DNA of 64,000 nucleotides from a virus. The notes under the pieces were generated by a model, which did no database searches, had not been told where the DNA came from, and saw nothing but the letters and a program-made list of their open reading frames with translations. This document shows, piece by piece, positions 1,929 through 63,527 of this stretch (its first letter is position 1; every line of letters begins with the position of its first letter). Location: the IMG/VR virus record IMGVR_UViG_3300045391_000992, positions 1 through 64,000 of that record, one strand, 5' to 3'. Both the position numbers and the translations under genes were made by a program.

Positions 1929-2225
1929 TCAGTTGTTGGCGCGGAGTTGTTTGTACTTGCGTTCGCATGCCTTCTCGGCTTCGGCTTGCGTGTCGTATTG
2001 GCGGTGCTTTTCGCCGGGTCTGGGATTCTCGCAGGGCGTTGACGAGACGGATTTGCCAGACGGGTGTCGCGGTTGATACGTCGCGGCCCATGTACCGTGC
2101 AGCGTATCGTATGACACGACGAAGTTCCAATCGCCCGCCGCACAAGCATACATGCGCATAGGCGGCGTACCCGGTAACATTTGCGCGAATAGCCGCTCGC
2201 CCGCTTCGTGTCGCCTGAACCTCAT
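1929..2225 (-). CDS. hypothetical protein (98 aa)
   Basis: ATG at 2223-2225 forms an ATGA overlap with the polymerase stop. The ORF-track start at 2240 is less likely. Confidence 0.5.
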   Translation of the reverse strand: MRFRRHEAGERLFAQMLPGTPPMRMYACAAGDWNFVVSYDTLHGTWAATYQPRHPSGKSVSSTPCENPRPGEKHRQYDTQAEAEKACERKYKQLRANN

Positions 2226-4816
2226 TTGTGCTCCCTCCAATCGTCAGTGCCCACACTCTCGAACTCGCCAGCCTTCTCACAGCTGGCCCAGTCATCGCCG
2301 ATCGCGCGCTCCACGACCAACGGTACGTTGATCCAATCGAAGCGATGCTTGAGCATCTCCGTGATGACGATCTCCGAGTTTTTCTCGACGTCCTCCGCCT
2401 TCCACAGGAATGTGAGATCGTCGTGGATCTCCATCATCGGAACGATGCCACGCTTGACGAGCGCGATATGCGCAGACAGCACGATGATTGACTCGTCGCT
2501 TTGTATCGGGCTGTTAATCAGCTGGTTATACGAAATTGGCGCTCGTCGCTTGAAGCCCGAGTGCCCGGTCACATAGCCATGCTTGTCGTAAAATGCCTTG
2601 AGGCCGATCTGCCATTTGTGAATGCCCGGGAACTGTTCGAACAAATCGTCCTGCAACTCCTGCACCACCTCGACCGGCATGGCCTTGCGCACACCGGGGA
2701 TCGCATTGACCGAGACCGTGATGCTCTTGGCTTTCGCACCGAAGAACGATGGGAACACGAACCCGTTCTTGATTGACGAGCGAACGTCCTTGAACACCTT
2801 GGGGTCATTGAACTCGGCCGGGGCCCACTTCGGCATGCGCTCCTTGAAATTATTCGACCACTCGGTGTGAATATCGTACCAGTCGAAGAACGCCTGCATG
2901 AACGCGCGGTCCTCGGACTCCATCGCGATATTGCGCGCCTGGATGCCAGCGTAATCGAACTTGACGATCTTCCGCGCCTTCTTCTTGATGATACGCCGAA
3001 TGATGTAGTTCGGACCACGCACCGGCCAATTCTGAATGTTCGGGTCCTCGGACGACGTGCGCCACGTTTCGACCTTGTATGTCGAAATGATCGGATGGAT
3101 CATCGCGTCGTCCATCAGCTGGCAGTTCTCCGTGCCCGGCGTGACGGGATCACAGTACGTGCTCAGGAGCTTGGTCGGCTTGCGCCACTTGATCAACGCC
3201 TTGCCAAATGGGTGATCGATACGCTTGAGCTGTTTCTCGTCACCCCCGACCTTGCCGTGCCCGATCATGATCAGCATTTTCTTTACGTCATGATTTGACC
3301 CGGGATTGAACTCCTTGCCGTGGGTCTTCTCGTACTTGGCCCAACACTTCAGCGCCTTGAGTTTAGCGAGCGCGTCGGCCTGTGCCTTCTCATAAGGCGT
3401 CCGCAGCTTGCGGATCTCGTTCTGATCGATCGGGATGCCGTGCATTTGCGTTCGAACGAGCGCAGGTATGCGCGCGATCTGATGGGCATAAACATCTTCG
3501 AGGCCCTGCTCAATGATCAGGGGCGCCTGACGAATGAACAACTTGCGATGGAACTTGGAGTCCATGCCATTGTACGGCAGTATCCGCTTCAACGGCTCGT
3601 CCGCCATGCGTTTGCGATCGACGTTCGAAAGCGACTTGAGGTTGATGCCGTAGTGTTGCTGCGTGAGAACCTCGAGTGCGAGCATGCCCTGTTTCTCGTT
3701 GATGATGTACGCCTGCGAGATCGAGTCGCCCCACTTGCTGTCCATCACCTCGACCCCGAACTCGACCGCAGACCACTCGAGCTCGAATGCAAGCTGGTGC
3801 GCGATCTTCACGGGGCCTTTGTGGCACAGATACTCGGTCCACATGTCGTCCAACATGTCGCGATGCTTCGGACTCCACAACGCTTCCTTATGATCGAACG
3901 GGAACGCGAGCGTGCCGCCCTTGTGCGTCACTGACGCAGTCAGGATTTTCGAGTCGTCGTTGTACGGGCGCAGCACTGACGTCTCGTAGTCAACGCCGTT
4001 GATCTTGTCGTTAACGGCGTCCTCGAGATGTCGCTCAATGCGTCGCAGGTCGGCCTTGCCGTCGCCGAATACCCACTCGACTCCTGCCATCGCGTGCTTC
4101 TCTGTGAGCACGGTCGGGGCCTTGTCGTTCTTGTTGAGCTCGCGGAAGATCGCGCGAAAATGACGCGACCACGTCACTTCGCTATCGGGATTGTGCCCGT
4201 CCCAACGTCGGTCTTTCATCACGTCATAGGGGTGTGTCATCGGGTACACCCAGAACGTGTGCTCGTCCTCACCGTCCGTGATCGTCGCGGGGAAGCGACG
4301 ACCCTGCCACAGATAGACGTGCGTTTCGTTTGCGATCCATCGCAGGGCGACCGCGCCGATCACGATGATTGCTGACGGCTTGACGCGGAGAATGTCAGCG
4401 CGCACTTGTGGCCGGCAACACTCGATCTCGATATACTCAGGAGTGCGCACGTGTTGATAAACGCGATCGTCTTGTGACCTGACGTACTCGCCCATACCCG
4501 GGTAAGTTTTTATCACGTTGCCATAACGGACCATGTCGCGCCACGGGCCCGGGACACGAGTGCGAACGTATCGCCCCGCGTCGTCGCTGAACGGCTTGCC
4601 TTGCTTGTCATCGACCTTGCTGGGGGCCGTGCCCAGAATGTAAACCTCGGCCTCTTTCGCGCCGTTCGGTTTCATCTTGGGAGTATGACAACCCGCGTTA
4701 TTCAGCGGGCACATGTTGCACCCCTGCTCGTGCAGTGTCGATAGCTGCACGCCGCGCGGGGCGCCCTTCACCCGAGCACTAGGCTCGGGCTTGTCGTCCA
4801 TGCCGAAGAAGCCCAT
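2222..4816 (-). CDS. family-A DNA polymerase with 3'-5' exonuclease domain and N-terminal family-4 UDG-like domain
   Basis: N-terminus CNMCPL..VYILGTAPS..GKPFSDDAG..HPYDV (UDG family 4 pattern). Exo I GVDYET. Pol motif A DYAGIQARN, motif B RSSIKNGFVFPSFFG, motif C EIHDDL. Confidence 0.9.
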   Translation of the reverse strand: MGFFGMDDKPEPSARVKGAPRGVQLSTLHEQGCNMCPLNNAGCHTPKMKPNGAKEAEVYILGTAPSKVDDKQGKPFSDDAGRYVRTRVPGPWRDMVRYGNVIKTYPGMGEYVRSQDDRVYQHVRTPEYIEIECCRPQVRADILRVKPSAIIVIGAVALRWIANETHVYLWQGRRFPATITDGEDEHTFWVYPMTHPYDVMKDRRWDGHNPDSEVTWSRHFRAIFRELNKNDKAPTVLTEKHAMAGVEWVFGDGKADLRRIERHLEDAVNDKINGVDYETSVLRPYNDDSKILTASVTHKGGTLAFPFDHKEALWSPKHRDMLDDMWTEYLCHKGPVKIAHQLAFELEWSAVEFGVEVMDSKWGDSISQAYIINEKQGMLALEVLTQQHYGINLKSLSNVDRKRMADEPLKRILPYNGMDSKFHRKLFIRQAPLIIEQGLEDVYAHQIARIPALVRTQMHGIPIDQNEIRKLRTPYEKAQADALAKLKALKCWAKYEKTHGKEFNPGSNHDVKKMLIMIGHGKVGGDEKQLKRIDHPFGKALIKWRKPTKLLSTYCDPVTPGTENCQLMDDAMIHPIISTYKVETWRTSSEDPNIQNWPVRGPNYIIRRIIKKKARKIVKFDYAGIQARNIAMESEDRAFMQAFFDWYDIHTEWSNNFKERMPKWAPAEFNDPKVFKDVRSSIKNGFVFPSFFGAKAKSITVSVNAIPGVRKAMPVEVVQELQDDLFEQFPGIHKWQIGLKAFYDKHGYVTGHSGFKRRAPISYNQLINSPIQSDESIIVLSAHIALVKRGIVPMMEIHDDLTFLWKAEDVEKNSEIVITEMLKHRFDWINVPLVVERAIGDDWASCEKAGEFESVGTDDWREHK

Positions 4817-5071: not shown

Positions 5072-6135
5072 TCCCCAGATACGAAGAAGGAAATCGATTG
5101 ATCGGGGTTCGAGAGGATCGCCGCCTTGTCGGTGAATGACAACGAACCGAGTTCGAGGCCCTGCAACAATCGAGCCGGCGGCACACGGATCTCAACGTCG
5201 TGATGCTTCTGCCCTGACGGCGGAGCGATCACGTCTTCGACCACGCCGCGCGACGATTTGGAGTAGAAGCGGATCTTGTTGTCGGCAATAGTCACCTTGA
5301 GCTTGGTGCTCTCGACCGCGTCGGCCGAAATGATCACGCTGCGCTCGAGCATCATCGGGAACTTCTTCGCGAACTGCTTGTCGCTCGCGTCGATCGTTGA
5401 CTTCGCCTCCTTCTTGATATCGCGAGCTTGATCGACGAAGTCGCGGTTCTTGCGATCCTGATCCTCGAGCGCGCCCCAAAGCACGACACCGTTGCACTTC
5501 GCGAGCAGTATCTTCTCGTCAATCGCGAGTTCGATTTCCGTCGCCCCCTCACTGATGCGGATCAGCTGATCGACCACGGCGGTCGGCACCACGACACGAT
5601 CCCAGCCGATCTCACGACTGAGCTTGACCTGGCAATGCGTCAACGTCAGTCGGTCATAACTGAACATGTGCAGCGTCTTGCCATCAGGTATCATGGTGAT
5701 GCCCTTGAAGGCCGACTCCGATGTCTCCGAACCGAGCGATCGTTTACACGCCTTGAGCGCGATCAGGAACTTCGGCACGTCAACAATGCCGATGCCCTCG
5801 GTCGGAAACTTGGGCATCGTGAAATTGAATTTGTCCGCGGCCATCGTCAGGAGCTTGAACTTCGAGGCCCCGGCCTTGACCGTGACGCCCTTGTCGGTCT
5901 CCTCGAATACACACTCAGGGGCCGCCGACGATGCGAGCAAGGGGAACAGCGTCGCCTGCACCGCGCCGACGAAGTCACATGGGAATGGCACGGCAAGTGC
6001 CAGCCCGCCGTTGAACGCCATCACGCGTTTGCCCGTGAACCAGAACGTCTTCATAACCTCATTGCTGTTCGTCACCGAACGCGCGGGGTCGACGTTCCGC
6101 AGGGCTTCAATCAAGATCTTCCTGTCCATATGCAT
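5068..6135 (-). CDS. sliding clamp (DnaN/beta-clamp-like)
   Basis: Start moved to ATG 6133-6135 (MHMDRKILIEAL) with AAAGGA 4 nt upstream. About 355 aa with a repeated beta-rich pattern. Sits between polymerase and clamp-loader genes. Call rests on position and pattern. Confidence 0.5.
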   Translation of the reverse strand: MHMDRKILIEALRNVDPARSVTNSNEVMKTFWFTGKRVMAFNGGLALAVPFPCDFVGAVQATLFPLLASSAAPECVFEETDKGVTVKAGASKFKLLTMAADKFNFTMPKFPTEGIGIVDVPKFLIALKACKRSLGSETSESAFKGITMIPDGKTLHMFSYDRLTLTHCQVKLSREIGWDRVVVPTAVVDQLIRISEGATEIELAIDEKILLAKCNGVVLWGALEDQDRKNRDFVDQARDIKKEAKSTIDASDKQFAKKFPMMLERSVIISADAVESTKLKVTIADNKIRFYSKSSRGVVEDVIAPPSGQKHHDVEIRVPPARLLQGLELGSLSFTDKAAILSNPDQSISFFVSGD

Positions 6136-7321
6136 TGATCCTTTCGAGTTGTTGCATGGCGCGTTTAGAAATGAAGGTGTCGTTGTCCCAGTCGACGCGG
6201 GCCGACCGTGGCTTGTAGTTGAGGTCAACGGCCCCCTGCCTCACGAATTTCTCGAGGTCGGCTTCGTCGCGATCGATGACTTCCCAGTAGGAGATCAGTC
6301 GGTTCCACGATTGGGCGTCGTTGAGTATCATGGAGAACTGGCCATTATGCATCATGGTGGCCATGATCACTCGCATATGCGGCCAGAGCTTCGGCGGCTT
6401 GAGGTTCGACATGTCCGGCAGGGGATCGAGTAGACCATTGCTCGTGTGTCGATAGTCCTCGCTGAACGGCAGTATCTTGTAGTGATCGCCGAACTCCACG
6501 AAGTATTTAAGGCAGGCTTTGCGACGTGCGGCGCTCTTGTAGCGGGCTTCCTCTTGCGTGATACCCACATGCTTAAGCCATCGCTGCACCCACGCCAGAT
6601 CCTCGGGGTTCAGGCCTTCGTACTGACGACGCGCCGATGACCAAGCCTTCTGCGTGCGGCCCGACGTGATGATCCGCATTGGCAGTTTGGAGTAGTCGGG
6701 CACGTGGTCGTGATCGATGCCGGGGACATAAATCAGACCGAACCCTGCGGCGAGCGACCATGTCGTGGAGTCGACAGTGAACCACGGGTATCGCCACAGC
6801 AAGCTGATATTCGTGATGCCAAAGCCGTGGGTCTTGACGAAGGGTCGGCCCTTACTGTCCGTGATCACAGAGAACGCGCGATCGAGCCACTCACGCTGTT
6901 CAATCGCAGTCGTGTCCTTGATCGTCGCGATCCCGACATAGGGTTCGCCGTCGCGGACATATCGCTCGAGCCAATCGAATGACTCGCCCTGATGGAAGAT
7001 CGGGATCGGTGTACAGCCTAGCGACTTGAGCGTCTGCTGATTGTCGTATGACTTCTTCGCTGACTGCTCGACCTGCTTCTGGGTTCGTTTCGAGCCGAAC
7101 ACACCCGGGATCTCGTCCATCGTCGCGTAACACTCGAGCAGGTGCTCGTGGCGTTTGATGAACTTCGCGTAGCCCTTGACGTTGAGCACGCGCTTGACCT
7201 TGTCGCGTATCGCAGGGTCGAGGTCGGGCACGTCCTTGCGCGACCACGCGCTAAACACACCGGAGTCAAGGAACAGATTGACCTTGTTCTTCGGCGGCTC
7301 CATTCGTTCGCGCTTGCTCAT
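6107..7321 (-). CDS. dpdA: DpdA-like guanine transglycosylase (TGT superfamily) for inserting 7-deazaguanine into DNA
   Basis: Start at ATG 7319-7321, in an ATGA overlap with the folE stop. FLDSGVFSAW matches the TGT DSGGFQ-type motif, and a second Asp motif is FTVDSTTW. Adjacent to folE. Confidence 0.6.
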   Translation of the reverse strand: MSKRERMEPPKNKVNLFLDSGVFSAWSRKDVPDLDPAIRDKVKRVLNVKGYAKFIKRHEHLLECYATMDEIPGVFGSKRTQKQVEQSAKKSYDNQQTLKSLGCTPIPIFHQGESFDWLERYVRDGEPYVGIATIKDTTAIEQREWLDRAFSVITDSKGRPFVKTHGFGITNISLLWRYPWFTVDSTTWSLAAGFGLIYVPGIDHDHVPDYSKLPMRIITSGRTQKAWSSARRQYEGLNPEDLAWVQRWLKHVGITQEEARYKSAARRKACLKYFVEFGDHYKILPFSEDYRHTSNGLLDPLPDMSNLKPPKLWPHMRVIMATMMHNGQFSMILNDAQSWNRLISYWEVIDRDEADLEKFVRQGAVDLNYKPRSARVDWDNDTFISKRAMQQLERINAYGQEDLD

Positions 7322-7899
7322 CCGATACCCACCCCCTTGGCTTGATCGATCATTTTGTAGAACTCCGCGCGGGCGTCGCTCTCGGTCTTGAGCTTGCCCC
7401 GCAGTGCCGCGGTCGTCGTCACAGTGCCCGGGCGATTGATGCCGCGGGACTCCATGCACATATGCCGGGCCTGCAACACGACGCCGACACCGCGCGGCTT
7501 TAGCACCTTGTCGATCGTGTCGGCGACTTGCGTCGTGATGCGCTCTTGCACGCTGAGCCGTCGCGCGAATGCATCGACCAGTCTCGGCAATTTCGAGAGA
7601 CCGACGATCTTGCCGCTAGGGATGTAGCCGACATGAGCCACGCCGAAGAACGGAGCGAGGTGGTGCTCGCACGTCGAGTAAAACGGGATCGCGCCGACGA
7701 AGACCATCTCGTCATAGGAGTCAGCACCGTCCTTGAATGTTTTGAGGAGTGCCGCGGTATCAACGCTGTACCCCGCCGTCCATTCTTGAAGGGCTGCGCA
7801 GTAACGCTTGGGCGTGTCGTGCAAGCCCTCGCGATTGGGGTCTGGCTCGACCTGCTCGATCAGGGAGCGAACAGCGTCAATCGGGTGCATTTTGGGCAT
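7318..7899 (-). CDS. folE: GTP cyclohydrolase I
   Basis: REGLHDTPKR, STCEHHLAPF, VQERIT and HMCMESRG motifs; 193 aa. Confidence 0.9.
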   Translation of the reverse strand: MPKMHPIDAVRSLIEQVEPDPNREGLHDTPKRYCAALQEWTAGYSVDTAALLKTFKDGADSYDEMVFVGAIPFYSTCEHHLAPFFGVAHVGYIPSGKIVGLSKLPRLVDAFARRLSVQERITTQVADTIDKVLKPRGVGVVLQARHMCMESRGINRPGTVTTTAALRGKLKTESDARAEFYKMIDQAKGVGIG

Positions 7900-7904
7900 G
7901 GCAT

Positions 7905-7943
7905 GCTTTCAATTAGGAGCGGTTACAGGGTGATTGCGGGGGC
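7905..7943 (-). promoter_or_regulatory. conserved 39-nt promoter-like motif, copy A (GCCCCCGCAATC-N16-TAATTGAAAGC)
   Basis: 31/39 identical to 48086-48124. Both copies follow a GC hairpin and lie just upstream of a gene start. Confidence 0.35.
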
Positions 7944-8013
7944 AGGCCCTCCCCTTGTCACGTCGCGATCGTCGCGCCGCGTTGCTGGGGCCTGTTAATG
8001 GGAAATGGGAACC

Positions 8014-8048
8014 AAGAAAAAGGGCCGGGGCTGTTGCCTCCCCGGCCC
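8014..8048 (-). terminator. rho-independent terminator
   Basis: Minus strand reads GGGCCGGGG-AGGCAACAG-CCCCGGCCC followed by TTTTTCTTGG, 24 nt after the stop of 8072-8962. Confidence 0.75.
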
Positions 8049-8071
8049 TCACCGTCATTGCACGCGATGAC

Positions 8072-8962
8072 CTAGAGGTCGATGCCCTTGAGCTTGCCAA
8101 GGTCCTTGAGCACCCTGAGCGTGTGACGGAACTCGGCGCGAACGTTCGAGACCGTGACCTTGGAGACCGGCGCCCCGCCCTTGCCCAGCTTCTTGATCAG
8201 GGCATCGACGGTGATCTCCGGGTCTTCGACGATCGCGGTCTTGATCGCGACCTTGACGCCGGACGGCTTGGCTTCGACCTTGGCGGCCTTCTTCTTGGCC
8301 GGCTTCTCGTCGTCATCGTCGTCCTCGGCCGGTTTGGCCTTCTTCTTTTTCTTGGCCGGCTTCTCGTCCTCCTCGTCTTCGTCGGCCTCGTCTTCGTCGT
8401 CATCGTCGGCGGGCTTGGCCTTTTTCTTTTTCTTGGCCGGGGCCTCGTCCTCGTCGTCGTCGTCGTCTTCGTCTGCCGCCGGCTTGGCCTTTTTCTTTTT
8501 CTTGGGGGCCTCGTCCTCGTCCTCGTCATCCTCCGACTCGTCGTCGTCATCGGCGGCGGGCTTGGCCTTTTTCTTTTTCTTGGCCGGCTTCTCCTCCTCG
8601 TCTTCCTCGTCTTCGTCGGACTCGTCGTCCTCCGACTCGTCATCCTCCGACTCGTCAGCCTCGTCCTCGTCCTCGTCCTCGGCCGGCTTGGCCTTCTTCT
8701 TCTTGGCCGGCTTCTCGTCGTCCTCGTCCTTCGGCACGGAGCCGACGTCAGGGAACTCCGGCACGCGCTTCTTGGCCTTGACCGCTTTGATCGCGGCATT
8801 GACCCAGTCCTGCGCTTCCTCGCTGAGCTTGTCCCACTGCGGGTCCTTGAAGGTGTTGACCTTCTCGACCACGGCGGTCAGGAAGTCCTGACGACCCTCG
8901 TACTCGTCGGGGTCGACCTTCGTGGCCTTGACGAACTCAGCTTGCAGTTTCGACTTTGGCAT
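8072..8962 (-). CDS. acidic/lysine-rich tandem-repeat protein with small globular N- and C-terminal domains
   Basis: AGGAG 7 nt upstream of the ATG. Central ~160 aa consists of [D/E]8-20 blocks alternating with (K)PAKKKKKAKPA. Has its own terminator. Confidence 0.8.
   Translation of the reverse strand: MPKSKLQAEFVKATKVDPDEYEGRQDFLTAVVEKVNTFKDPQWDKLSEEAQDWVNAAIKAVKAKKRVPEFPDVGSVPKDEDDEKPAKKKKAKPAEDEDEDEADESEDDESEDDESDEDEEDEEEKPAKKKKKAKPAADDDDESEDDEDEDEAPKKKKKAKPAADEDDDDDEDEAPAKKKKKAKPADDDDEDEADEDEEDEKPAKKKKKAKPAEDDDDDEKPAKKKAAKVEAKPSGVKVAIKTAIVEDPEITVDALIKKLGKGGAPVSKVTVSNVRAEFRHTLRVLKDLGKLKGIDL
8257..8740 (-). repeat. in-frame tandem coding repeats (about 6 units, variable length)
   Basis: The DNA repeats gcctt(t)ttc(t)ttttcttggc(c)gg plus GAC/GAG runs. 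Protein units are DEDEDE..PAKKKKKAKPA. Confidence 0.7.
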
Positions 8963-9007
8963 TGGTAACTCCTGTTGATGCCCTAAAGTTTATGGTCGGC
9001 GCGTTGA

Positions 9008-9460
9008 TCACAAGGGTTCAGAGTATGAGGCGCTGTTGCCCTCATGCTCTGCGACCGTAACCTTTGCGAGTCTCACACGGGGGCGGACCCCCATGTCATC
9101 GAGCACCGCGAGAGCATGTTGGAACGCGTAGTACGCGAACGCTTCCATGCCGACGCGGGGCAATAACGTGTAGTCGCAGATCCTTCTGCCTTCGATCGTC
9201 GTCAGTTGTTGGATCGCGTCAATGTCATTCTCCGCGATCATTGTCTTGTGATCGAACATATCGACAAGGAACTGTTTCAACGGCTTGAGGCCGCCGAAGT
9301 CAATCACCCAGTTATTCTTGTCGAGCGTTTCGGCCTCGAACTCGAACGTGAACGCGAGCGCGTAGCCATGCAGGAAATGACAATGCGACTCCGCACGCGG
9401 CTGGCGAAAGCACGCGGACAGACCGAGCGAGTGCGGGTAATGCTTCGTGACGTGGTACAT
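9008..9460 (-). CDS. queD: QueD-like 6-carboxytetrahydropterin synthase (PTPS fold), divergent
   Basis: SHCHFLHGY..NWVIDFGGLK..FDHK matches the PTPS/QueD pattern. It reads LHGY where I expect LHGH, and the first Zn-ligand His seems to be absent. Confidence 0.6.
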   Translation of the reverse strand: MYHVTKHYPHSLGLSACFRQPRAESHCHFLHGYALAFTFEFEAETLDKNNWVIDFGGLKPLKQFLVDMFDHKTMIAENDIDAIQQLTTIEGRRICDYTLLPRVGMEAFAYYAFQHALAVLDDMGVRPRVRLAKVTVAEHEGNSASYSEPL

Positions 9461-9536
9461 GATTGCCCCTGTGATGATTAAGCAGGCTACCGCACCCGGC
9501 GATCTCGCGATCGTCAGGTGTCGGTGGCGCTCCTAC

Positions 9537-14005: not shown

Positions 14006-14194
14006 CTAATCGTCGTCGATTGGTTCATCGGCGTCGTAGTTCGCCTTCGTCAGAACCTCGGGACGATACGTCGCCATCTTCGCGTCGTGGCATGTTGGGC
14101 AGGTACGACACAAGGGGATGCCCCTTGCGTCGCTCTGCCAGGTCGAGGCCAAGCCCGAGCCACATGGGCAGGGCCTCGAGTCGTAGCGGCCCAT
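14006..14194 (-). CDS. small zinc-binding protein with SEC-C-like CPCGSG motif (62 aa)
   Basis: Start moved to MGRYDSRPCPCGSG. Also carries CRTCPTCH. Confidence 0.45.
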   Translation of the reverse strand: MGRYDSRPCPCGSGLASTWQSDARGIPLCRTCPTCHDAKMATYRPEVLTKANYDADEPIDDD

Positions 14195-14195
14195 A

Positions 14196-14564
14196 TTAAG
14201 CCGCCTCTTGCTTGCGCGGGTCAAGCTCCAAACCGATCTCCCACTTCTTGATAAGCTTGTCCATCAGCTTGTCGTATTGACGGTCGAGCCACGCCTGTTC
14301 CTCGGGCGTCGGCTTGATACCGACATGTGACCACTTCTTGACCACGTTGCCGATCGTCGTCAGCACCTGCGGGAACGTCATGCGTCCCTTACCTTCATGC
14401 AGCACGGTGACTGTGTCATCGACCATGGCGCCCACGATCACGAGTCGGGTCTTTTTGTCCTGACCCCATGACGTGACGATAATCAACTCACACTCCCCGT
14501 CATTGCCGGGCAGGTGGAGAGAGTAGCCATTGTCGCGCAGATGCTTCGCTTTGAACTTGATCAT
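14196..14564 (-). CDS. hypothetical protein (122 aa)
   Basis: Start moved to MIKFKAKHL (ATG 14562-14564), which follows the conserved AAGGAACGAAC of R3. Confidence 0.6.
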   Translation of the reverse strand: MIKFKAKHLRDNGYSLHLPGNDGECELIIVTSWGQDKKTRLVIVGAMVDDTVTVLHEGKGRMTFPQVLTTIGNVVKKWSHVGIKPTPEEQAWLDRQYDKLMDKLIKKWEIGLELDPRKQEAA

Positions 14565-18160: not shown

Positions 18161-19774
18161 TCAGGCCGCGAGACGCTCCCGTCGTCGTCGCGTTCGGAAC
18201 ACGGCCTCGGCCCCAGTGTTGAGTATGGCCTTCCACAGACTGCGCCCCTCAGCGTGAAAGCGCAGAATGCTTTCATCGACCGTGCCGCGAACGATCAGGT
18301 CATAGAGTATGACGGTGCGATGCAGCGAGTACTGGCGATCGAAACGCTTCTCGGTTTGTTTGCGCAGTATGGCCCCGACCGGCGACTCGTAGTAGATACC
18401 GTACTTCGCATTCTGCAAATTCAAACCGTACCCGCCCGCAGAATTTGACAACACGAGCGCTTGCACCTTGGGGTCATGTTTGAACGCGTGGCGTGCTGCG
18501 TCGCTCTTCTTCGTCGTGCCGTTGATCGCGACGTGACCGATGCCCAACTCCTTGAGCTTGGCGCATATAACGCGCGACGAATGCTGGAACTCGTGGAACA
18601 CGATGAACTTGTGTTCGGGCTTGAATGTCTGAACGAGCGACTCGAGGAGATCGAGCTTGGGGTTTGTTTCGAACTCGAACTTCACGCGGTCGCCTGTCTC
18701 GTCATCCTTGAAGCCGATGAAGCCGGAACTGATTTGACGCAATCGCAGGAACGCGTTCTTCAGAGCTTGGAAGTCGCCCTTGGCCTGCTTCATTGCTTCC
18801 TTTGCGCGCTCGATGTATTGATCGGCATTCTCAGGGAGTACGGCCTCCTTCTTCAATCGGGTCAAGTGTGGCATCACGGTTTCGTCGGCGGGGTACGCGA
18901 TCGATATGTTATCGAGTCGCGCGCTGATCGCGCGCTTGCCCGCCTTCGTCAGCTTATATTCCTTGCCGCCCCAGTACAATTCCTTCTCCTCAAAGAAGGC
19001 CGCACGAAACAGGCCGAGCGTTTCGCCGAGTGTCTCGCCACGATCGACAAGGAAGGCTTGGGCCCACACGTCTTCCACGTCACGCCCGAACGGGGTGGCC
19101 GTCAGTATGAAGAAGCAGTTCGCGCTCTTACTCAATTGATTGCAAAGACGCCACGGGAGCGCAGCCTTGTTTTTGACGTAGGTCGACTCGTCAAGGTACA
19201 CGCCGTCGAACCGTTTCATGAGTTCGCGGATCTTGCGCTTGTTCGGGACAAGCCTGTTGATCTCCACACTCTTGCCCTTGCGTTTGCGCTTGACCTTCTT
19301 GAGGTCGCAGCACATGCGCACGAAGCCCATATAGGTTTCCACGAACGCGTCGGCTTCGGTGTTGTCCTTGAGCGCCTGCCACTTCGACTCCGTACTGCCG
19401 TGCAACACCACGCATTGCATCGATGGCGTATGCTTCTGGAAGCCCTCTTCCAGCCACTCCCATTTGTTGATCTTGTTCGGGACGAGGATCAGGTTGCATT
19501 TTGTATCACCCGCGCGCTTGAAATACTTCATGAGCGAGAGTGACAGGAACGTCTTGCCCGTGCCGGTCTCGTTGAAGTATGCGAACCGACGCTTACGGGC
19601 CCCGATCACGAAGCAGACACGTTGGTCCGATCGGAGCTTGTTCCATATGGGCGGGCGACATTCGAGTTTCCGCATCCGACTATCAATGTCGTCCTCGGAT
19701 AGGTTTTTCCACAGGGAGTAATCGCGGTGGGGCCTCGCATGAAAAGCCTTTACTGCGCGGGGGGATAGGTTCAT
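18161..19774 (-). CDS. SNF2/DEAD-like superfamily-2 helicase
   Basis: GTGKT (motif I), YLDESTY (motif II), ILTATPF (motif III), LSNSAGGYGLNLQ (motif V), QTEKRFDRQ (motif VI). Confidence 0.8.
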   Translation of the reverse strand: MNLSPRAVKAFHARPHRDYSLWKNLSEDDIDSRMRKLECRPPIWNKLRSDQRVCFVIGARKRRFAYFNETGTGKTFLSLSLMKYFKRAGDTKCNLILVPNKINKWEWLEEGFQKHTPSMQCVVLHGSTESKWQALKDNTEADAFVETYMGFVRMCCDLKKVKRKRKGKSVEINRLVPNKRKIRELMKRFDGVYLDESTYVKNKAALPWRLCNQLSKSANCFFILTATPFGRDVEDVWAQAFLVDRGETLGETLGLFRAAFFEEKELYWGGKEYKLTKAGKRAISARLDNISIAYPADETVMPHLTRLKKEAVLPENADQYIERAKEAMKQAKGDFQALKNAFLRLRQISSGFIGFKDDETGDRVKFEFETNPKLDLLESLVQTFKPEHKFIVFHEFQHSSRVICAKLKELGIGHVAINGTTKKSDAARHAFKHDPKVQALVLSNSAGGYGLNLQNAKYGIYYESPVGAILRKQTEKRFDRQYSLHRTVILYDLIVRGTVDESILRFHAEGRSLWKAILNTGAEAVFRTRRRRERLAA

Positions 19775-19891: not shown

Positions 19892-19920
19892 TTTGTTCAA
19901 CTCAGAGTAAGGTGGTTATC

Positions 19921-20217
19921 ATGTCACATCAGTATAAGGATCATCGTCCCGATTCCGCCAAGGGCAAGGTCCACGAAGTGTTCGATACGAAGGGCAAGGA
20001 CGCCGCGATCAAGAAAGCGGTCGCGCTCGATATCGCGGAGTCGACGGCCCGCACGTGGTGCTCGTCGTGGAAGAACGGCGGCAAGGCCAAGAAGGCGAAG
20101 GCTGCGAAAGCTGCTCCTGCAAAGAAGCCGGCTGCGAAGAAGGCGGCTGCGAAGAAGGCCCCCGCGAAGAAGGCGAAGGCCAAGCGCGAGTCGCTCGAGG
20201 CCTCAGCGGCAGCCTGA
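19921..20217 (+). CDS. histone H1-like Lys/Ala/Pro-rich DNA-binding protein (98 aa)
   Basis: AAGGTGG 6 nt upstream of ATG 19921. Tail is KAKKAKAAKAAPAKKPAAKKAAAKKAPAKKAKAKRESLE. Followed by a strong terminator. Confidence 0.7.
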   Translation: MSHQYKDHRPDSAKGKVHEVFDTKGKDAAIKKAVALDIAESTARTWCSSWKNGGKAKKAKAAKAAPAKKPAAKKAAAKKAPAKKAKAKRESLEASAAA

Positions 20218-20279: not shown

Positions 20280-20480
20280 CTAATCGTCATCGTCAAATAA
20301 ATCGAGACGTTCACGCTTGCGCTTGCGTGGCGGCTCAGGCTCGGGCAATCGCTCCCTGATGCGCCCGGGCGGGTCAGGGTGATATCGCAGAGGGAACACC
20401 CAACCGCACGGGCATACGCCCGGGTGCTTGGGGCTATAAGTCTTGTCGGGGAAGCCACACCAGAGCCTATTCGTCATCAT
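20280..20480 (-). CDS. hypothetical protein (66 aa) with RKRKRERL..DDDD tail
   Basis: Start at MMTNRLWCGF, overlapping the helicase stop. Confidence 0.45.
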   Translation of the reverse strand: MMTNRLWCGFPDKTYSPKHPGVCPCGWVFPLRYHPDPPGRIRERLPEPEPPRKRKRERLDLFDDDD

Positions 20481-21903
20481 CGTCGTCCCCTGCTTCGTCC
20501 TCTGTGCCCGCAAAGTCTTCGAATGCCTGCTTATACTCGCGATGCATGTACATTGAGTCGAGTGCGAATTGCCCGACCGCGTAGGCTTGGGTGACGACGA
20601 TTTGAAAACGATCCTTGTCTGATCGGTTCTTGCTGACGAACATGCGGCCCAGCCCGTGCTCGAACTCGAGGTCGGTGCAAGAGTACGTCACGACCGCGTC
20701 GCACGTGCCCATGATCGACCAGTCTTCCGCAAGGTGCACCCCCTTGGCCATCACTGCGAGCTCGCCAGCCTTTGACAATTGATGGGCCGTCACACCCGCG
20801 GCGTTGCGTTCGATCATGAGACCGCGCAGATCCTCGCAGTTCATGCTCATGCTGCCGCGAACGTTCTTGATGTCTTTCTTCAACAGGCCGAGGTAGTCGA
20901 CTATGATCACGTCGGGCACGAAGCCCTCGGTCTGCTCGAGCATGTCAAGGTATGCGCGAATGTGACTGACCGTCCACTCGTTCGGCTTGAAGCGTTTGAC
21001 GACAAGGTTCTCAGACTTCTTGCCGAATGACACCATGTGCTGTTCGAGTTCGAGGCTGGCCAAATCGTCCTCGAGCGAGAACATCGGCTTGTAGTCGCTG
21101 CGGCTCAGACCCGTGAACTCCTCGAGATCGCGTTCAAACTCCGTGATCTCGACTGGCTCGCGACGCTTCGACACGCTGAAGATCGACTGGTAATAGCGAC
21201 CAATCACCTCCTCTTCATCGATTTCCCCCGACAAGTGCGCGACCTTCTTGCGGTCCATCAGCGCGTGCTTGCCGATGTTCACAAGGAACCACGTCTTGCC
21301 ACGACCCGCGGCGCCACCGAACAGCATGAGCTTGCCGCGGGCGGGTACAAAGTGTCGCCTGTCGAGCTCAGCGACTCCCGTGCGGAACTCCGCCTGCAAT
21401 TGTTGGAGTCGTGCGAGGACAGGGGCGATCTCGTTCAGTCGCATGCCCGGTTGGAAATCGATCTCGCGCGTTCGCAGGAGTTTGTCCCATAGCTCCTCGA
21501 TCTCAGGCAGAGCCATTTGCTGGATGTTGTTGATCTTCTCTGCCGACTCGACGATCGCGCTTTTAAAACGCTGCACGCGGTGTAGGTCACGGAGTTGATC
21601 CATGACGTACTTGGTATTGAGGTTGTCGGACAGCGCGATCATGTTTCGCAGGAGTCTGCGGATCGTGTTGCCACGTCGATTGTGCTTGTCCTCGAGAATG
21701 TCGCCGAACATGTCGGCGGTGTGATCGCCCGGGGCCGCACCATACTTGCGCCAATAGTCGACGGCGCGTTCCGCAATCATACGGTAGTCGCCTTCAAGCA
21801 ACTGCACGTTGAGCATATTCGAAACGACCTTACCCTGCTCGTTGTTGTAACAGAGCAGGGTGATGACGTTCTCCTGTAGCGCGTGGTTCATCGTGTCGGT
21901 CAT
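20467..21903 (-). CDS. DnaB-like replicative helicase
   Basis: Start at MTDTMNHAL (ATG 21901-21903). DnaB-type N-terminal domain, Walker A GGAAGRGKT, and RecA-like C-terminal domain. Confidence 0.7.
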   Translation of the reverse strand: MTDTMNHALQENVITLLCYNNEQGKVVSNMLNVQLLEGDYRMIAERAVDYWRKYGAAPGDHTADMFGDILEDKHNRRGNTIRRLLRNMIALSDNLNTKYVMDQLRDLHRVQRFKSAIVESAEKINNIQQMALPEIEELWDKLLRTREIDFQPGMRLNEIAPVLARLQQLQAEFRTGVAELDRRHFVPARGKLMLFGGAAGRGKTWFLVNIGKHALMDRKKVAHLSGEIDEEEVIGRYYQSIFSVSKRREPVEITEFERDLEEFTGLSRSDYKPMFSLEDDLASLELEQHMVSFGKKSENLVVKRFKPNEWTVSHIRAYLDMLEQTEGFVPDVIIVDYLGLLKKDIKNVRGSMSMNCEDLRGLMIERNAAGVTAHQLSKAGELAVMAKGVHLAEDWSIMGTCDAVVTYSCTDLEFEHGLGRMFVSKNRSDKDRFQIVVTQAYAVGQFALDSMYMHREYKQAFEDFAGTEDEAGDDDDDE

Positions 21904-22154
21904 CACTTCCACTCCAGCGCTTTGATTTCTGCGCTCGTGTAGAGCTTGAGATTTGTCATCTTGCCCCCGGGTCGCATGTCGATTATTTCGACGCGCGACA
22001 CCTCGCCCCGATCGATGCGAGCCGCCCACGCCAGCGTCTCCGTTTGCGCAGACGATATGCCGCGGTGCGACGTTTCAACGAGCATCACGCCGAACGGCGC
22101 TTTACCCGGGTGCTTCGAGCCTGCGAAGCCTCGTACCCGAAAATCCCAATTCAT
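21903..22154 (-). CDS. hypothetical protein (83 aa)
   Basis: Start at MNWDFRVRG, in an ATGA overlap with the queE stop. Confidence 0.5.
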   Translation of the reverse strand: MNWDFRVRGFAGSKHPGKAPFGVMLVETSHRGISSAQTETLAWAARIDRGEVSRVEIIDMRPGGKMTNLKLYTSAEIKALEWK

Positions 22155-22867
22155 GGCACATCCACCAGCTTGTGCACCTGCAGCGAAAGGCGATACCCGT
22201 GCTCGAGGCACAGGTCGCGCGCCCACTCCCTGTTGCGCTGATTGGGGCCATACTCCTGCTCATCCATCGGGCTGATCCAAATCTGCACGACCGGATGTTT
22301 GGGATAGAACACGACGGAGTCCCGACCCTGATGCTGCGTTGACTTCGTCGGCATGCCCCATTTATCGCCCTCGCCATGCCTGACGACGTATTTCCACGCG
22401 CCGACGAGTCGCTCCAAGTAGGGATGAACCTTCGGCGTCTTGGGACTGCACACGATCAGGTTGCCCGCGATCGTGCGCAACGGATCGAATACAGTGTGCA
22501 GTTCGGGCAGCGTGACGGTGCCCGCAGTTTCGATCGAGCACGAGATACCGAACTCGTTCATGCGTCGCACGAAAGGCACAATGTTCTGCAGGAGCGGTTC
22601 GCCGCCCGTGATCACGACGAGCGAACATTGCTTCCGTCGCGCTATCACGAGCACGTCGTCGACCAAGGCGTGGAGCTCGATCTCCTCGCCCGTCTCAAAC
22701 TCCGTATCACAGAAGTAGCAGCGCAGGTTACACTTCGCGAGGCGCACGAATATGGCGGGGCGGCCGGAGTCCGGTCCCTCCCCCTGCAGTGTGTAGAACA
22801 CTTCGTTCACCAGCAGGTGTGTCCCGCTCTCGTTGAACGATCCGCTCACCTTGTTCTGACCGAACAT
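22151..22867 (-). CDS. queE: 7-carboxy-7-deazaguanine synthase (radical SAM)
   Basis: FYTLQGEGPDSGRPAIFVRLAKCNLRCYFCDT and ITGGEPLL. Start at ATG 22865-22867, with AAGGAAG 6 nt upstream. Confidence 0.85.
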   Translation of the reverse strand: MFGQNKVSGSFNESGTHLLVNEVFYTLQGEGPDSGRPAIFVRLAKCNLRCYFCDTEFETGEEIELHALVDDVLVIARRKQCSLVVITGGEPLLQNIVPFVRRMNEFGISCSIETAGTVTLPELHTVFDPLRTIAGNLIVCSPKTPKVHPYLERLVGAWKYVVRHGEGDKWGMPTKSTQHQGRDSVVFYPKHPVVQIWISPMDEQEYGPNQRNREWARDLCLEHGYRLSLQVHKLVDVP

Positions 22868-29477: not shown

Positions 29478-29521
29478 TCGTCAGTCTCCTTTGCTTCCCA
29501 GTGTCTATTACTGGGTTTGGC

Positions 29522-29550
29522 ATTATAGCGTGCAAAGGAGCGTGACGCAA
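29522..29550 (-). promoter_or_regulatory. candidate sigma-70 promoter for the regulator block
   Basis: Minus strand reads TTGCGT-N17-TATAAT, 45 nt upstream of ATG 29477. Confidence 0.5.
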
Positions 29551-29610
29551 TCACACTACAATCCCCGCGATATTCGCATGTCCTATGGCAGTGTGAGTTC
29601 TCACACCTTA

Positions 29611-29988
29611 CTAACACAATTGCGGATGTTTCAGACGCAGTGTCTCGAATACTCGAGTCTTGCGTCCCTTGAATGTGGAGAAAGGCACGTCGCAATCAAG
29701 CTTGAGTCTGATCACGGGCAGCTTGAGTCTGCGCTCACACTCGCGCAAATGATGCTCGCATATCAATTCATGCTCGGGGAGCTTGAGGTATTGCTTGATC
29801 GCAAGGTCTATCGTGAATTTGCGAACCTTGCGTTTATCACGCTTGCGCTGCGCGCTTGCGTAGCCTTTGCGACGTTTCGTTTTATGTCGCGGAGCTTGAT
29901 CGGGATAGCTCAACGCTTTCGAGTAGGGTTTGCGCACAAGCTTCTTATTCACACCCCATGCCGCGTACTTTCTCAACGTATACTTCAT
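29611..29988 (-). CDS. highly basic hypothetical protein (125 aa), AT-richer gene
   Basis: AAGGAG 8 nt upstream. K/R-rich with a CEHHLRECE motif. Confidence 0.5.
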   Translation of the reverse strand: MKYTLRKYAAWGVNKKLVRKPYSKALSYPDQAPRHKTKRRKGYASAQRKRDKRKVRKFTIDLAIKQYLKLPEHELICEHHLRECERRLKLPVIRLKLDCDVPFSTFKGRKTRVFETLRLKHPQLC

Positions 29989-30031
29989 TTCTCACACTCC
30001 TTACTATTTACCCAGATCCTAGGTGCAACAT

Positions 30032-30073
30032 CTCCACAACACAGCAGTCACTCAGTGTGAAAGTGTTGTGGAG
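30032..30073. promoter_or_regulatory. 11-bp perfect inverted repeat in the leader of 29611-29988
   Basis: CTCCACAACAC-N20-GTGTTGTGGAG, with a nested CACTCAGTG. Confidence 0.5.
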
Positions 30074-30560
30074 CTTTTACCCGTCACCTTTTGGTTGGGT
30101 CTGATTTTTCTAGATGCCATAGGCTTGCAGATCTGCCTATGTCGCTTTTGGCATTATCTCCATTGTAGCGACTTGATCGTTTGATCATTTGCGTCGGACC
30201 CAATTTGATACTGGTGAGCTCATAAAGTCCAGACGGTCAGAGTAAACTGACATAGTTTGCGTTGGTCAACGCATTTGAGGTTTACCAGCGACCGTTTGGC
30301 TAACGGCTGTGAAACTGACCTCACCCGACAGACGGGATGACCTATGGTGTTGCGTGATGGGATCGGGGATGTGCGGATTTGCAATGTTGATCACGTCGCG
30401 CATTGACACATACTGCACGACATTTTCACACTCGTTAGGGCCTCGAGCAACAGGGGGTCATGCGGGGGGCCCGTGTTCGGGGGCGTCGATCGCCCCGCGC
30501 GCTCTGTATCCGCGTTTATTTGAATGTGTGCCGCCCTCGGGCACGGGGGCGAGCAGGCCC

Positions 30561-30594
30561 CAAAACAGCGAAGGCGGAGGCTTTCGCCCCCGCC
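30561..30594 (-). terminator. possible rho-independent terminator after the late operon
   Basis: Minus strand reads GGCGGGGGC-GAAA-GCCTCCGCC, then TTCGCTGTTTTGG. There is a 7-nt gap before the T-run. Confidence 0.4.
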
Positions 30595-30682
30595 CTCACC
30601 TCGGCCCACACTCCCGCGCCAGAGACTGCGGCCGATATACGCGCTCACACGTGGCGGTGGTCAGACCACGGGGCGCGAACTC

Positions 30683-31102
30683 TTAGGTGTCGGAACCAAT
30701 GTTGAACGTGATCCCGCCCGATTGGAATTTGACGGACGAGTTGACGAGCACTGACACCGTGCCGCCGCTAACGACTTTCGACGCGTACAGGTTGCCCGAA
30801 CCCGGGGTCGCGTTGTCGTAAAGGGCGACGTGAGTAAACGTCGCAGCGCCCTCGGCATTGCCGAAGTCAACGGCGATGTCTGAGGTCAACAAGTGTGACG
30901 CGCCCGACGCGATGTCTGCGAACGTCACTTCCTGACGCGGAGCGCCGCTGTTGATCGTCGCGCCGACCTCGGTACCCGACGTCTTCGGGTTCCCGTTGAA
31001 AAGCGCAATGTAGAGATTGGTCGGGCGCGACGGCATGTCGGCTTGATTGTTGAGCCACCGGCAAATCTTGTTGCCGAAGTATGGAGACAGGTCAGAGCTC
31101 AT
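30683..31102 (-). CDS. virion/fibre-associated protein (139 aa), same size class as 59106-59525
   Basis: LYIALFNGNP..GTEV..RQEVTFA..VALYD pattern, common in small phage fibre-associated proteins. Confidence 0.45.
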   Translation of the reverse strand: MSSDLSPYFGNKICRWLNNQADMPSRPTNLYIALFNGNPKTSGTEVGATINSGAPRQEVTFADIASGASHLLTSDIAVDFGNAEGAATFTHVALYDNATPGSGNLYASKVVSGGTVSVLVNSSVKFQSGGITFNIGSDT

Positions 31103-31592
31103 CTATGTAGATCCTGATCAGGAGTGAAAGGAACGAGGGCATCGCGCAGAACAGCAACGCCCCGATAGCGGAGTATACCCACACCTTGCTTTTCCATTCG
31201 GGCGGTGTGAATATGTAGATCGCCCTTAGCAGGCCAAGATTGAGCGCGATGCCTGCCAGCAGATATCCGTATGACGTAATCAAACTATGGTTCACGTTGA
31301 AGAAGACGCCGACGTCGCCGTGGGCCTTACCCATTTGGTAAAGCACCCACACGGCGCCCGATCGATAAGTCTCGGCGGCGAACACCCACCACAACGCGCA
31401 AGCCGTCTGCACACCCGGACCCTTGGTCCACGATCGTCCGCGCGGTCTCTCGATCTGCGAGTACCAATCGAGGGCAGTGTCCCACATGAAGATTGATATC
31501 ATGCAGGTCAGGGTCAGGCAGAGAATCATTGAAGAGCCATTGATCCATTCGCGGATCAACGCTTGGTGCTGCACTACAATATCAATCATCAC
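31092..31592 (-). CDS. integral membrane protein (about 4-5 TM)
   Basis: Multiple hydrophobic helices. Adjacent to the lysis genes. Confidence 0.5.
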   Translation of the reverse strand: MMIDIVVQHQALIREWINGSSMILCLTLTCMISIFMWDTALDWYSQIERPRGRSWTKGPGVQTACALWWVFAAETYRSGAVWVLYQMGKAHGDVGVFFNVNHSLITSYGYLLAGIALNLGLLRAIYIFTPPEWKSKVWVYSAIGALLFCAMPSFLSLLIRIYIDEL

Positions 31593-31833
31593 GTCTCCTC
31601 ACCAAGTACCGTTCGAACTGTTCGAACGAGGTAGTGCGCTTCTGCGCTATTTTGATTGAGTCGCGCAATTTTCTGTTGGTGGAAAGACGCTTTCCGATTG
31701 CTTCATGCAATCGGTCAATCATGTTTTCGTGGTCGCGCGCTTGGTTCTCGATCTCCGCATTGATCACGTCGTCCTCCGTGAACGGTTGGATGAGCCCCCA
31801 TCGCCTGAATAATTTTTCGATACGCTCGATCAT
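31582..31833 (-). CDS. hypothetical protein (83 aa)
   Basis: Start at MIERIEKLF, in an ATGA overlap at 31830-31833. Confidence 0.5.
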   Translation of the reverse strand: MIERIEKLFRRWGLIQPFTEDDVINAEIENQARDHENMIDRLHEAIGKRLSTNRKLRDSIKIAQKRTTSFEQFERYLVRRRDD

Positions 31834-32444
31834 ACGGTCTTGGGCCTCCGCTTCCCGCGGTTGACTACTCTGACATTTCCCAGTGCCGCGCGGATCGCCG
31901 ACAGGCTCTGCTCGCCTTGCTCCCTTAGCGCTTTGATTTGCGCGTCTGAGCACTCGCGAAGAACCTTCCGCAACTCTTCGCCCTGCGCATTCATGGTTGC
32001 GCGGACGTCTTGGACGTGACCTTGCGCGATCGTGCGGTTCTCCGTGACGATCGTGGTCAGCTGCCGTATCGCGTCGGCCATGGCGGTGACGGCCATTGCC
32101 GAAGCGTCGTTGTGATCCTTGATGTTCTCATACTGAGCAAGGATCGTGACCTTGAGGAGTTCGAACGCATGGGCCTGCTGAGCGATCAGCTTGGCCTGCT
32201 CCTCGGTCAGTTCGTTGCGCTCCTCCGTCACCTTGAGCATATCACGCAAGACGCCCGCGGTGTCGGATAGCGTTTTGTTGAGTGTGTCACGTTCGGCGAG
32301 TCGGTAGCCATACACCTTGTCCGCCTTGTTCTGAAGCGACTTGATATAGGCAACGAGTCCCGCGCAGACCATGAACTCCATGAAGATCACGACACCCGGG
32401 AAACCCATGTCCCCGAGTATCTTCGTGACCCACTCCGGCAACAT
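31830..32444 (-). CDS. N-terminal TM + coiled-coil protein (i-spanin-like)
   Basis: TM segment FPGVVIFMEFMVCAGLVAYI followed by a long helical region. Confidence 0.5.
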   Translation of the reverse strand: MLPEWVTKILGDMGFPGVVIFMEFMVCAGLVAYIKSLQNKADKVYGYRLAERDTLNKTLSDTAGVLRDMLKVTEERNELTEEQAKLIAQQAHAFELLKVTILAQYENIKDHNDASAMAVTAMADAIRQLTTIVTENRTIAQGHVQDVRATMNAQGEELRKVLRECSDAQIKALREQGEQSLSAIRAALGNVRVVNRGKRRPKTV

Positions 32445-32674
32445 TAGAAGAACCTACCCTTCGGTTTGAACGCGGGGCAATGAAGGCTGGCCCCGTATTC
32501 GTCATGCTTGAGAATCTGCCGGGCCGTGCCGTCTGTGAGCTTGTCGTCCTTGCTCACGGTAATCGGCCCCCAGCCCGTGCAGACGCTACCAGCGCAGCCG
32601 GCCAAGCTAATCGCGCTGCCAACGATCACGCAGATCCTTGTCGACCTGCGAATTGCTTTTGTTATCGACGTCAC
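32444..32674 (-). CDS. small lipoprotein (o-spanin-like), partly embedded in the holin-like gene
   Basis: GTG at 32672-32674, preceded by GAGGTGG. Signal peptide with lipobox ISLAGC. Confidence 0.5.
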   Translation of the reverse strand: MTSITKAIRRSTRICVIVGSAISLAGCAGSVCTGWGPITVSKDDKLTDGTARQILKHDEYGASLHCPAFKPKGRFF

Positions 32675-32951
32675 GATCCACCTCGTTTCGTTTCTGCAAT
32701 GCCTGCGCATTGCGTCGGCGCTCTTCATCTTCCGCATTTGCGCGGCCGCGGTACCGCCCACCCATGAACGCGAGGAACACACCCCCGATAAAGATCAGCG
32801 TCACCTTTAGCCACTTGGGCAACGCATTCCAAATCGGTATCAGGATGGGAGAGAAGAAGTACAGGAGCGCACCGATAGGGATGCCGATGATCAGAACCCA
32901 ACCCCAGATCGGGATATGATCAATGATCGCGTTCCAAATCATGTCAGCCAT
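32607..32951 (-). CDS. holin-like protein (3 TM + charged C-terminus)
   Basis: Three hydrophobic helices followed by RGRANAEDEERRRNAQALQKRNE. Confidence 0.55.
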   Translation of the reverse strand: MADMIWNAIIDHIPIWGWVLIIGIPIGALLYFFSPILIPIWNALPKWLKVTLIFIGGVFLAFMGGRYRGRANAEDEERRRNAQALQKRNEVDRDVDNKSNSQVDKDLRDRWQRD

Positions 32952-32969
32952 GGCGCGCTCCTTTAATAT

Positions 32970-33998: not shown

Positions 33999-34000
33999 AT

Positions 34001-63471: not shown

Positions 63472-63527
63472 GTGGAACAGGCCGAGGCGGTTAGACCCCG
63501 GCCTCCCATTCCAACCAGGCGCTTCGA

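Follow-up and report, generated by a model that had tools for sequence, protein, structure and literature searches.

The window analysed here is a 64-kb slice (positions 1-64,000) of a 75.8-kb viral contig, IMG/VR record IMGVR_UViG_3300045391_000992, and it carries a set of genes for modification of DNA with 7-deazaguanines. The set comprises dpdA (6107-7321), encoding a DNA guanine transglycosylase; folE (7318-7899), encoding GTP cyclohydrolase I; queD (9008-9460), encoding a 6-carboxytetrahydropterin synthase homolog; and queE (22151-22867), encoding a radical-SAM (S-adenosylmethionine) 7-carboxy-7-deazaguanine (CDG) synthase. All four genes lie on the minus strand and were found where an earlier sequence-only reading of this DNA had placed them, as were the ATGA overlap of folE and dpdA, a repeat-protein gene (8072-8962) between queD and folE, and the position of queE among helicase genes. 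The core of that reading, a phage DpdA plus a gene set for 7-cyano-7-deazaguanine (preQ0) serving 7-deazaguanine DNA modification, is supported by homology, motifs and synteny. The DpdA and QueD of the window are themselves recorded on a 75,814-bp contig, of which 11.8 kb falls outside the window. All credible window genes, judged by the profile of GC content at third codon positions (GC3), are on the minus strand, and the window is part of a ~76-kb lytic-type phage genome with every gene on one strand. Pfam and PHROGs scans covered 73 window open reading frames (ORFs), 40 early and 33 late.

The 404-aa product of dpdA was assigned to the 9g type of DNA guanine transglycosylase (DpdA1-like) from PHROGs and tblastn matches, motifs and structural comparison. 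It matched phrog_887, 'queuine tRNA-ribosyltransferase', at 2.3e-38 over aa 14-285. By tblastn, it matched 179 phage records, including Edwardsiella phage vB_EpM_ZHS (OM621816; hereafter ZHS) with 35% identity (2e-43) and Enterobacteria phage 9g (2e-21), and a local tblastn search against Pseudomonas phage Iggy gave 2e-23. Homology to the experimentally characterised phage DpdAs of 9g and Iggy was detectable without profile methods. Approximately 90 full-length homologs of 370-435 aa were found in metagenomes, several of them on 70-80-kb contigs and all of them unannotated. In an alignment of 80 homologs, D19 (in FLDSG), H165 (in KTHGFG), D184 (in VDSTTW) and a few other residues were invariant. 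H165 aligns with His196 of 9g (KVHGFG), the residue that separates 9g-type DpdA from DpdA2, which lacks that His (PMC6884629). By analogy with tRNA-guanine transglycosylase (TGT), the Asp residues of the FLDSG and (V/C)DS(S/T)xW motifs are likely to be catalytic.

The AlphaFold2 (AF2) model of DpdA was of high confidence (predicted local distance difference test score 94.7, predicted TM score 0.90). Its predicted fold agrees with the TIM barrel of TGT-like enzymes. The top Foldseek matches of the model in BFVD were phage queuosine tRNA-ribosyltransferases (1.6e-15 to 1e-7), and the matches included proteins of Dinoroseobacter phage R5C (3e-14), Arthrobacter and Mycobacterium phages, and Vibrio phage nt-1. 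Foldseek searches of the PDB returned nothing at or below 1e-3, and the alignment profile found no match among PDB sequences at E <= 1; fold-level support for the modelled enzyme comes from BFVD, not from the PDB. It should be noted that enzymes of the FolE and QueD types serve pterin pathways as well and that the activity of this DpdA clade is predicted only from sequence, and the genes might on that account boost host queuosine, tRNA or pterin metabolism without any modification of phage DNA. We regard this as very improbable, as the transglycosylase groups with phage DpdAs rather than tRNA TGTs (PF01702 is not matched, and its BFVD matches are phage DpdAs), and dpdA is positioned between folE and replication genes, as it is in the chemically modified phages 9g and Iggy (PMC6884629, PMC10484667).

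FolE was identified by PF01227 (5.4e-68) and by TIGR00063, with a score of 206.8 bits against a cutoff of 181.6. The stop codon of folE and the start codon of dpdA overlap as ATGA (...ggtatcggATGAgcaag), read directly in the sequence, and this overlap indicates that the two genes are translationally coupled. QueE matched phrog_2076 at 6.1e-43 and contains the cluster motif CxxxCxxC as CNLRCYFC; the NCBIfam QueE models matched at 1e-23, below their equivalog cutoffs (83 versus 240). The protein is 43% identical to the QueE of ZHS. The gene is directly upstream of genes for a DnaB-like helicase (20467-22029) and an SNF2 helicase (18161-19774). Between these two helicase genes lies 19912-20217, the sole plus-strand ORF with a gene-like GC3 (0.78), a putative gene for a lysine-rich product of 101 aa.

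The product of queD scored above the gathering score of PF01242 (4.5e-16) and matched phrog_2389 at 1.5e-36; against TIGR03367 it reached 38 bits, where the cutoff is 89. Its motif reads CHFLHGY, within ...SACFRQPRAESHCHFLHGY..., and in an alignment with Escherichia coli QueD, whose Zn ligands are H16, H31 and H33, it has Phe at H16 and Tyr at H33. The canonical combination of CxxxHGH with three Zn-ligand His residues is therefore not present. The catalytic Cys, the FDH motif and the C-terminal EH (Glu) are kept. The sequence-only reading had remarked on this divergence, and was accurate as to the motif and the missing first Zn-ligand His; its view of the protein as an oddity did not stand, as HCxxxHGY was found in 120/120 retrieved QueD homologs, down to ~50% identity. 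The same motif occurs in the QueD of Iggy, Cellulophaga phage phiST, Acidovorax phage ACP17 and ZHS, while the QueD of 9g is of the canonical CxxxHGH form. The DNA of Iggy has been shown to contain 2'-deoxy-7-cyano-7-deazaguanine (dPreQ0) (PMC10484667), and that of phiST contains 2'-deoxy-7-deazaguanine (dDG) (PMC10516641). Because the HGY form is fixed among the homologs and is present in phages with proven deazaguanine DNA, we interpret it as a distinct subtype that works like QueD, rather than as an anomaly. At odds with the CxxxHGH signature of the textbooks, many DpdA phages commonly carry HCxxxHGY; a literature search on an 'HGY' variant of QueD found nothing relevant. H10 and H26 each reach at least 95% conservation across the clade, and these two residues might replace the canonical ligands and rebuild the metal site.

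A further feature of the window DpdA is a C-terminal extension of ~120 aa (roughly aa 285-404), which is conserved, well folded in the AF2 model, and not found in the enzymes of ZHS, 9g and Iggy. This extension is the only, mildly, new feature of the system. It is kept in the ~90 metagenomic homologs, lies outside curated models and is always paired with an HCxxxHGY QueD, which leads us to speculate that the long (~400-aa) DpdAs might form a functionally distinct subgroup, perhaps differing from the 9g, CAjan and Iggy enzymes in recognising a new target motif in DNA, in replacing guanine to a higher level or in using another deazaguanine as substrate, and that QueD could also have rebuilt its metal site; we consider this rather doubtful. 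The long form of DpdA has no Pfam or NCBIfam model, which is a modest point for follow-up.

No QueC was encoded within the window. The QueC proteins of ZHS and Iggy, used as tblastn queries, gave nothing in the 64 kb, and no QueC family appeared in the Pfam and PHROGs scans of the window ORFs. A QueC hidden Markov model (HMM) was built from 120 sequences and run with filters off against all six-frame segments of at least 30 aa; the best E value was 0.09, compared with 2e-111 for the positive control. That marginal match, the only one, was a small Cys-rich ORF (14006-14224, minus strand; CPCGSG...CRTCPTC), which is not QueC and was probably matched through its Cys motif. The window's only SGGxDS match, at ~24537, was likewise rejected, being an 80-aa out-of-frame segment inside other genes without QueC similarity.

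The gene was found beyond the right edge of the window. A search with the last complete gene at that edge (63528-63941) retrieved a Logan contig of 5669 bp (L015), which overlaps window positions 63028-64000 with 99.9% identity (one mismatch in 973 nt; blastn) and extends 4696 nt past the edge. It carries queC on the minus strand at L015:1301-2023, equivalent to window positions 66674-67396 and ~2.7 kb past the edge. The 240-aa product has a precomputed match to PF06508 as its sole family match, an SGGLDS PP-loop and a CxxCxxC Cys motif (CGKCMTC). A second contig (L016) shares 1294 nt with the window at 100% identity and agrees with L015 for the intervening genes until 340 nt from queC. An independent contig from the Joint Genome Institute (JGI; L027) encodes an SbcC-like protein, a NusG-like protein, proteins of 59 and 91 aa, and QueC; a QueC-locus search of metagenome contigs returned only the 4.2-kb JGI contig already found. 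Three relatives (L033, L034 and L035), with QueC 62-71% identical, carry SbcD, SbcC, NusG (in L033), QueC, small genes, a GcrA-like gene, TerL and a portal-Acb1 gene. TerL and portal-Acb1 are also the genes found at the right end of the window, in agreement with the layout of these relatives. As queC is found at another locus, both in L015 and in the relatives, it has moved in this lineage and was not lost.

The missing QueC is thus a window-boundary effect. The sequence-only reading was right that the 64 kb contain no queC, and wrong to treat this as an oddity; among its explanations, a queC outside the window proved correct, borrowing of the host QueC is unnecessary now that a phage queC has been found, and arrest at the carboxy stage (CDG type) has lost its premise, since the phage has a QueC and the searches for a DpdL-type CDG decarboxylase gave none. 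It had also stated beforehand that a normal queC just outside the window would remove the novelty of the system though not the system, and this is the outcome. For its suggestion that the SNF2 helicase and the UDG-like domain of the polymerase may be functionally linked to the modified DNA, no support emerged from these results.

Phages that encode FolE, QueD, QueE and DpdA3, without QueC, have the QueD paralog DpdL (LxxxHRHxF) and make dDG (Cui et al. 2023, PMC10516641). With this precedent, and with the window alone, which looks QueC-less and has an HGY-type QueD, FolE and QueE like those of phiST and ACP17, the phage could be read as truly lacking QueC, with a pathway that ends at CDG and a DpdA that inserts CDG or dDG, as in phiST. 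That reading has next to no probability left and is effectively refuted already, given the normal queC 2.7 kb outside the window on a 99.9%-identical contig and kept at the same locus in relatives. Moreover, phiST and ACP17 have DpdL and DpdA3, whereas the LxxxHRHxF (HRHxF) motif is absent from every frame of the window and the DpdA is 9g-type, not DpdA3. A single T-fold ORF matched the QueD HMM, and no second T-fold protein was found. In ACP17, gp125 was identified as DpdL by its motif LGSPHRHLF, and we take gp123, a hypothetical protein of DpdA3 size adjoining DpdL, to be a putative DpdA3; neither gave a match in the window. A CDG/dDG system with DpdL was accordingly rejected.

The gene set of this phage is complete, queC is linked to the window, and the layout is conserved in relatives. 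We consider it likely that FolE, QueD, QueE and the off-window QueC constitute a complete phage preQ0 pathway which, with a 9g-type DpdA, makes dPreQ0-containing, restriction-resistant DNA; it is from published systems that we infer what the enzymes do, which base they finally yield and that it is protective. In the proposed pathway, FolE would convert GTP to dihydroneopterin triphosphate (H2NTP), the HCxxxHGY-type QueD would form 6-carboxytetrahydropterin (CPH4), QueE would produce CDG, and QueC would convert CDG via 7-amido-7-deazaguanine (ADG) to preQ0. After replication, DpdA would exchange a fraction of the genomic G, at particular sequence motifs, for preQ0, and the resulting DNA would resist host restriction enzymes. 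Among the 73 window ORFs and the L015 genes there was no DpdL, Gat domain, QueF, ArcS or DpdC-like family. With a plain 240-aa QueC and no QueF, ArcS or DpdL detected, the published scheme predicts dPreQ0 (PMC6884629, PMC10516641).

A complete pathway could also end in another base (2'-deoxy-ADG (dADG), deoxyarchaeosine (dG+) or the 7-aminomethyl derivative dPreQ1) through a QueC that stops at ADG or an unrecognised tailoring enzyme. In Campylobacter phages that encode a QueC-like enzyme, the base made is dADG (PMC10516641), and the genome encodes many hypothetical proteins and includes ~5 kb beyond the sequence covered. In addition, a sister lineage (JGI 3300043313 contig with P0017, DpdA 54% identical) has QueC and a glutamine amidotransferase (GATase)/Asn-synthase gene directly upstream of folE and a long dpdA, with the GATase/Asn-synthase gene between queC and folE; its product is a GATase_6/7 plus Asn_synthase protein of 438 aa. 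The gene suggests, from its predicted domains, that the sister lineage makes an amidated derivative, for example a dG+-like base, so that the final step does vary within the clade. For the phage studied here, the QueC of which keeps the full PP-loop and Cys motif, and in which none of the Gat, QueF, ArcS or DpdC-like families was seen in the ORFs scanned, we think a final base other than dPreQ0 unlikely, though a credible alternative.

Several observations weigh against a complete pathway leading to dPreQ0. The L015 QueC falls 0.4 bit short of the TIGR00364 cutoff (6.6e-44; 149.9 versus 150.3 bits), and L015 is the only contig that spans from the window edge through to queC itself. The QueD of the window is without two of the three canonical Zn-ligand histidines. 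DpdA had no curated Pfam or NCBIfam match, PF01702 included, and its Foldseek matches in the PDB were weak TIM-barrel matches, of which the most probable was the eukaryotic TGT 7owz (probability 0.87, E 0.09). From phages whose gene sets appear identical, differing bases or mixtures of bases have been obtained (PMC6884629). Finally, ~5 kb of the 75.8-kb genome lies outside the sequence covered, with RecA to SbcC placed by synteny, and a further modifying enzyme could be encoded there or among the hypothetical proteins.

The preferred reading, a preQ0 pathway with a 9g-type DpdA, finds its nearest parallel in the Queuovirinae-type systems of Escherichia phage CAjan and Pseudomonas phage Iggy, which have dPreQ0 DNA and the same five functions (FolE, QueD, QueE, QueC and DpdA). 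The window phage shares with them the core order queD-folE-dpdA-sliding clamp-DNA polymerase. In Iggy the order is queE-queC-queD-folE-dpdA-clamp-pol, as in 9g, and in the window it is queD-X-folE-dpdA-clamp-pol, a core (with UDG/PolA as the polymerase) that matches Iggy, 9g and ZHS. The QueD of Iggy is 50% identical to that of the window and has the same HCxxxHGY motif, and both phages have a plain QueC without an amidotransferase domain. Unlike in the Queuovirinae-type systems, the genes of the window phage are scattered, with queE 13 kb upstream beside the helicase genes and queC at the far end of the replication/recombination module beside a NusG-like gene. The window DpdA is only ~30% identical to its Queuovirinae-type counterparts, lacks the N-terminal extension of the Iggy and 9g enzymes, and has the C-terminal extension instead. 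All its genes also lie on one strand, in contrast to the bidirectional Queuovirinae layout (PMC10484667).

Phage ZHS is the closest cultured relative for the module, with identities of 35% for DpdA (the best match), 56% for FolE and 41% for QueD in addition to that of QueE. A homolog of the repeat protein (ZHS_68) is encoded upstream, and the clamp and UDG-PolA genes downstream, as in the window. The ZHS DpdA differs in being only 266 aa long, and ZHS has queC between the repeat-protein gene and folE, a site that the window phage occupies with a 172-nt hairpin-containing spacer. Phage 9g (dG+, DpdA1) resembles the window phage in a DpdA found by direct BLAST, in His196 as the equivalent of H165, and in the order dpdA-clamp-pol; it differs in its Gat-QueC fusion (471 aa) and CxxxHGH QueD, where the window phage has a QueC without Gat and an HGY-type QueD. 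The genes that mark a dG+ (archaeosine) system, Gat-QueC, ArcS or QueF-L, were absent from the window ORFs and L015 genes, a scope beyond which ~5 kb of the genome lies. A megablast search of window positions 6000-9500 against phages gave no match, and the phage therefore has no close cultured relative.

Taken as a whole, the system most likely belongs to the known phage preQ0 plus DpdA kind, as a new member with a scattered gene order and with dPreQ0 as the most likely base in its DNA. With it, the 7-deazaguanine DNA modifiers known so far gain an uncultured clade of 75-80-kb phages, which means little beyond cataloguing. The module is broken up across the replication region, and scans that look for an uninterrupted queE-C-D-folE-dpdA cluster will therefore under-report it. 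The queC result is also a caution that a gene absent from a fixed window is not necessarily absent from the genome.

The spacer between the repeat-protein gene and folE contains a terminator-like hairpin on the minus strand (8010-8042), with an 11-bp stem of nine G-C pairs followed by UUUUUCUU. The RNA fold of this hairpin had a free energy of -24.6 kcal/mol (z = -2.6). The spacer has the same length in the window phage and in an 88%-identical relative (L028), with no other content, and it is at this site that relatives such as ZHS have queC. The repeat protein itself (8072-8962, minus strand; 296 aa) combines a conserved domain at its N-terminus with tandem repeats of the KPAKKKKKAKPA/acidic kind, and is not part of the preQ0 pathway. 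It matched phrog_38529 at 1.4e-07. Its N-terminal likeness to ZHS_68 was recognised by visual comparison of the translations, and tblastn gave only a weak C-terminal match (E 0.03). The gene has repeat periods of 78 and 150 nt (Tandem Repeats Finder) and is conserved at the same position in L028.

Two proteins, the repeat protein and the product of L012:1312-2472, contain long tandem repeats in which stretches of acidic residues alternate with PAKKKK or PRKKKRKP units rich in K/R. In the latter, the repeats make up the C-terminal tail. This protein has a CPACAEQK Cys motif and continues past the left window edge; read from its letters without a family search, it is a candidate gp32-like single-stranded DNA-binding protein. 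The family-A DNA polymerase (2222-4816, minus strand) has an N-terminal domain of the uracil-DNA glycosylase (UDG) superfamily (PF03167, 2.4e-14) and a 3'-5' exonuclease domain, a UDG-polymerase fusion that is also seen in relatives L028 and L030.

Outside the window on the right side, a NusG/RfaH-like antiterminator homolog (L015:2-406; TIGR01955, 1.5e-18) is encoded just upstream of queC, and a GcrA-like regulator (PF07750) is encoded at L015:3658-4455, upstream of the terminase genes. The GcrA-like gene, together with best matches to Rhizobium phages, suggests alphaproteobacterial hosts for the clade. Within the window, a stretch of ~1.2 kb (29480-30680) had no convincing ORF on either strand. 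This possible regulatory or origin region separates the early genes from a cluster at 30683-34061, the Pfam and PHROGs matches of which include families of the endolysin and spanin types.

Among the head and morphogenesis genes are those for a family-2 glycosyltransferase (52768-53496, minus strand; PF00535, 2.6e-10) and a Methyltransf_24 SAM methyltransferase (54189-54857, minus strand; PF13578, 3.8e-20), for neither of which was a link to the deazaguanine pathway found. The portal protein (59531-61777, minus strand; 748 aa, with PF06381 at aa 64-408) has as its C-terminus an Acb1 phosphodiesterase domain (PF23474, 1.2e-28, aa 542-686) directed against the cyclic oligonucleotide-based antiphage signalling system (CBASS), and the same portal-Acb1 fusion is present in relatives L034 and L035.

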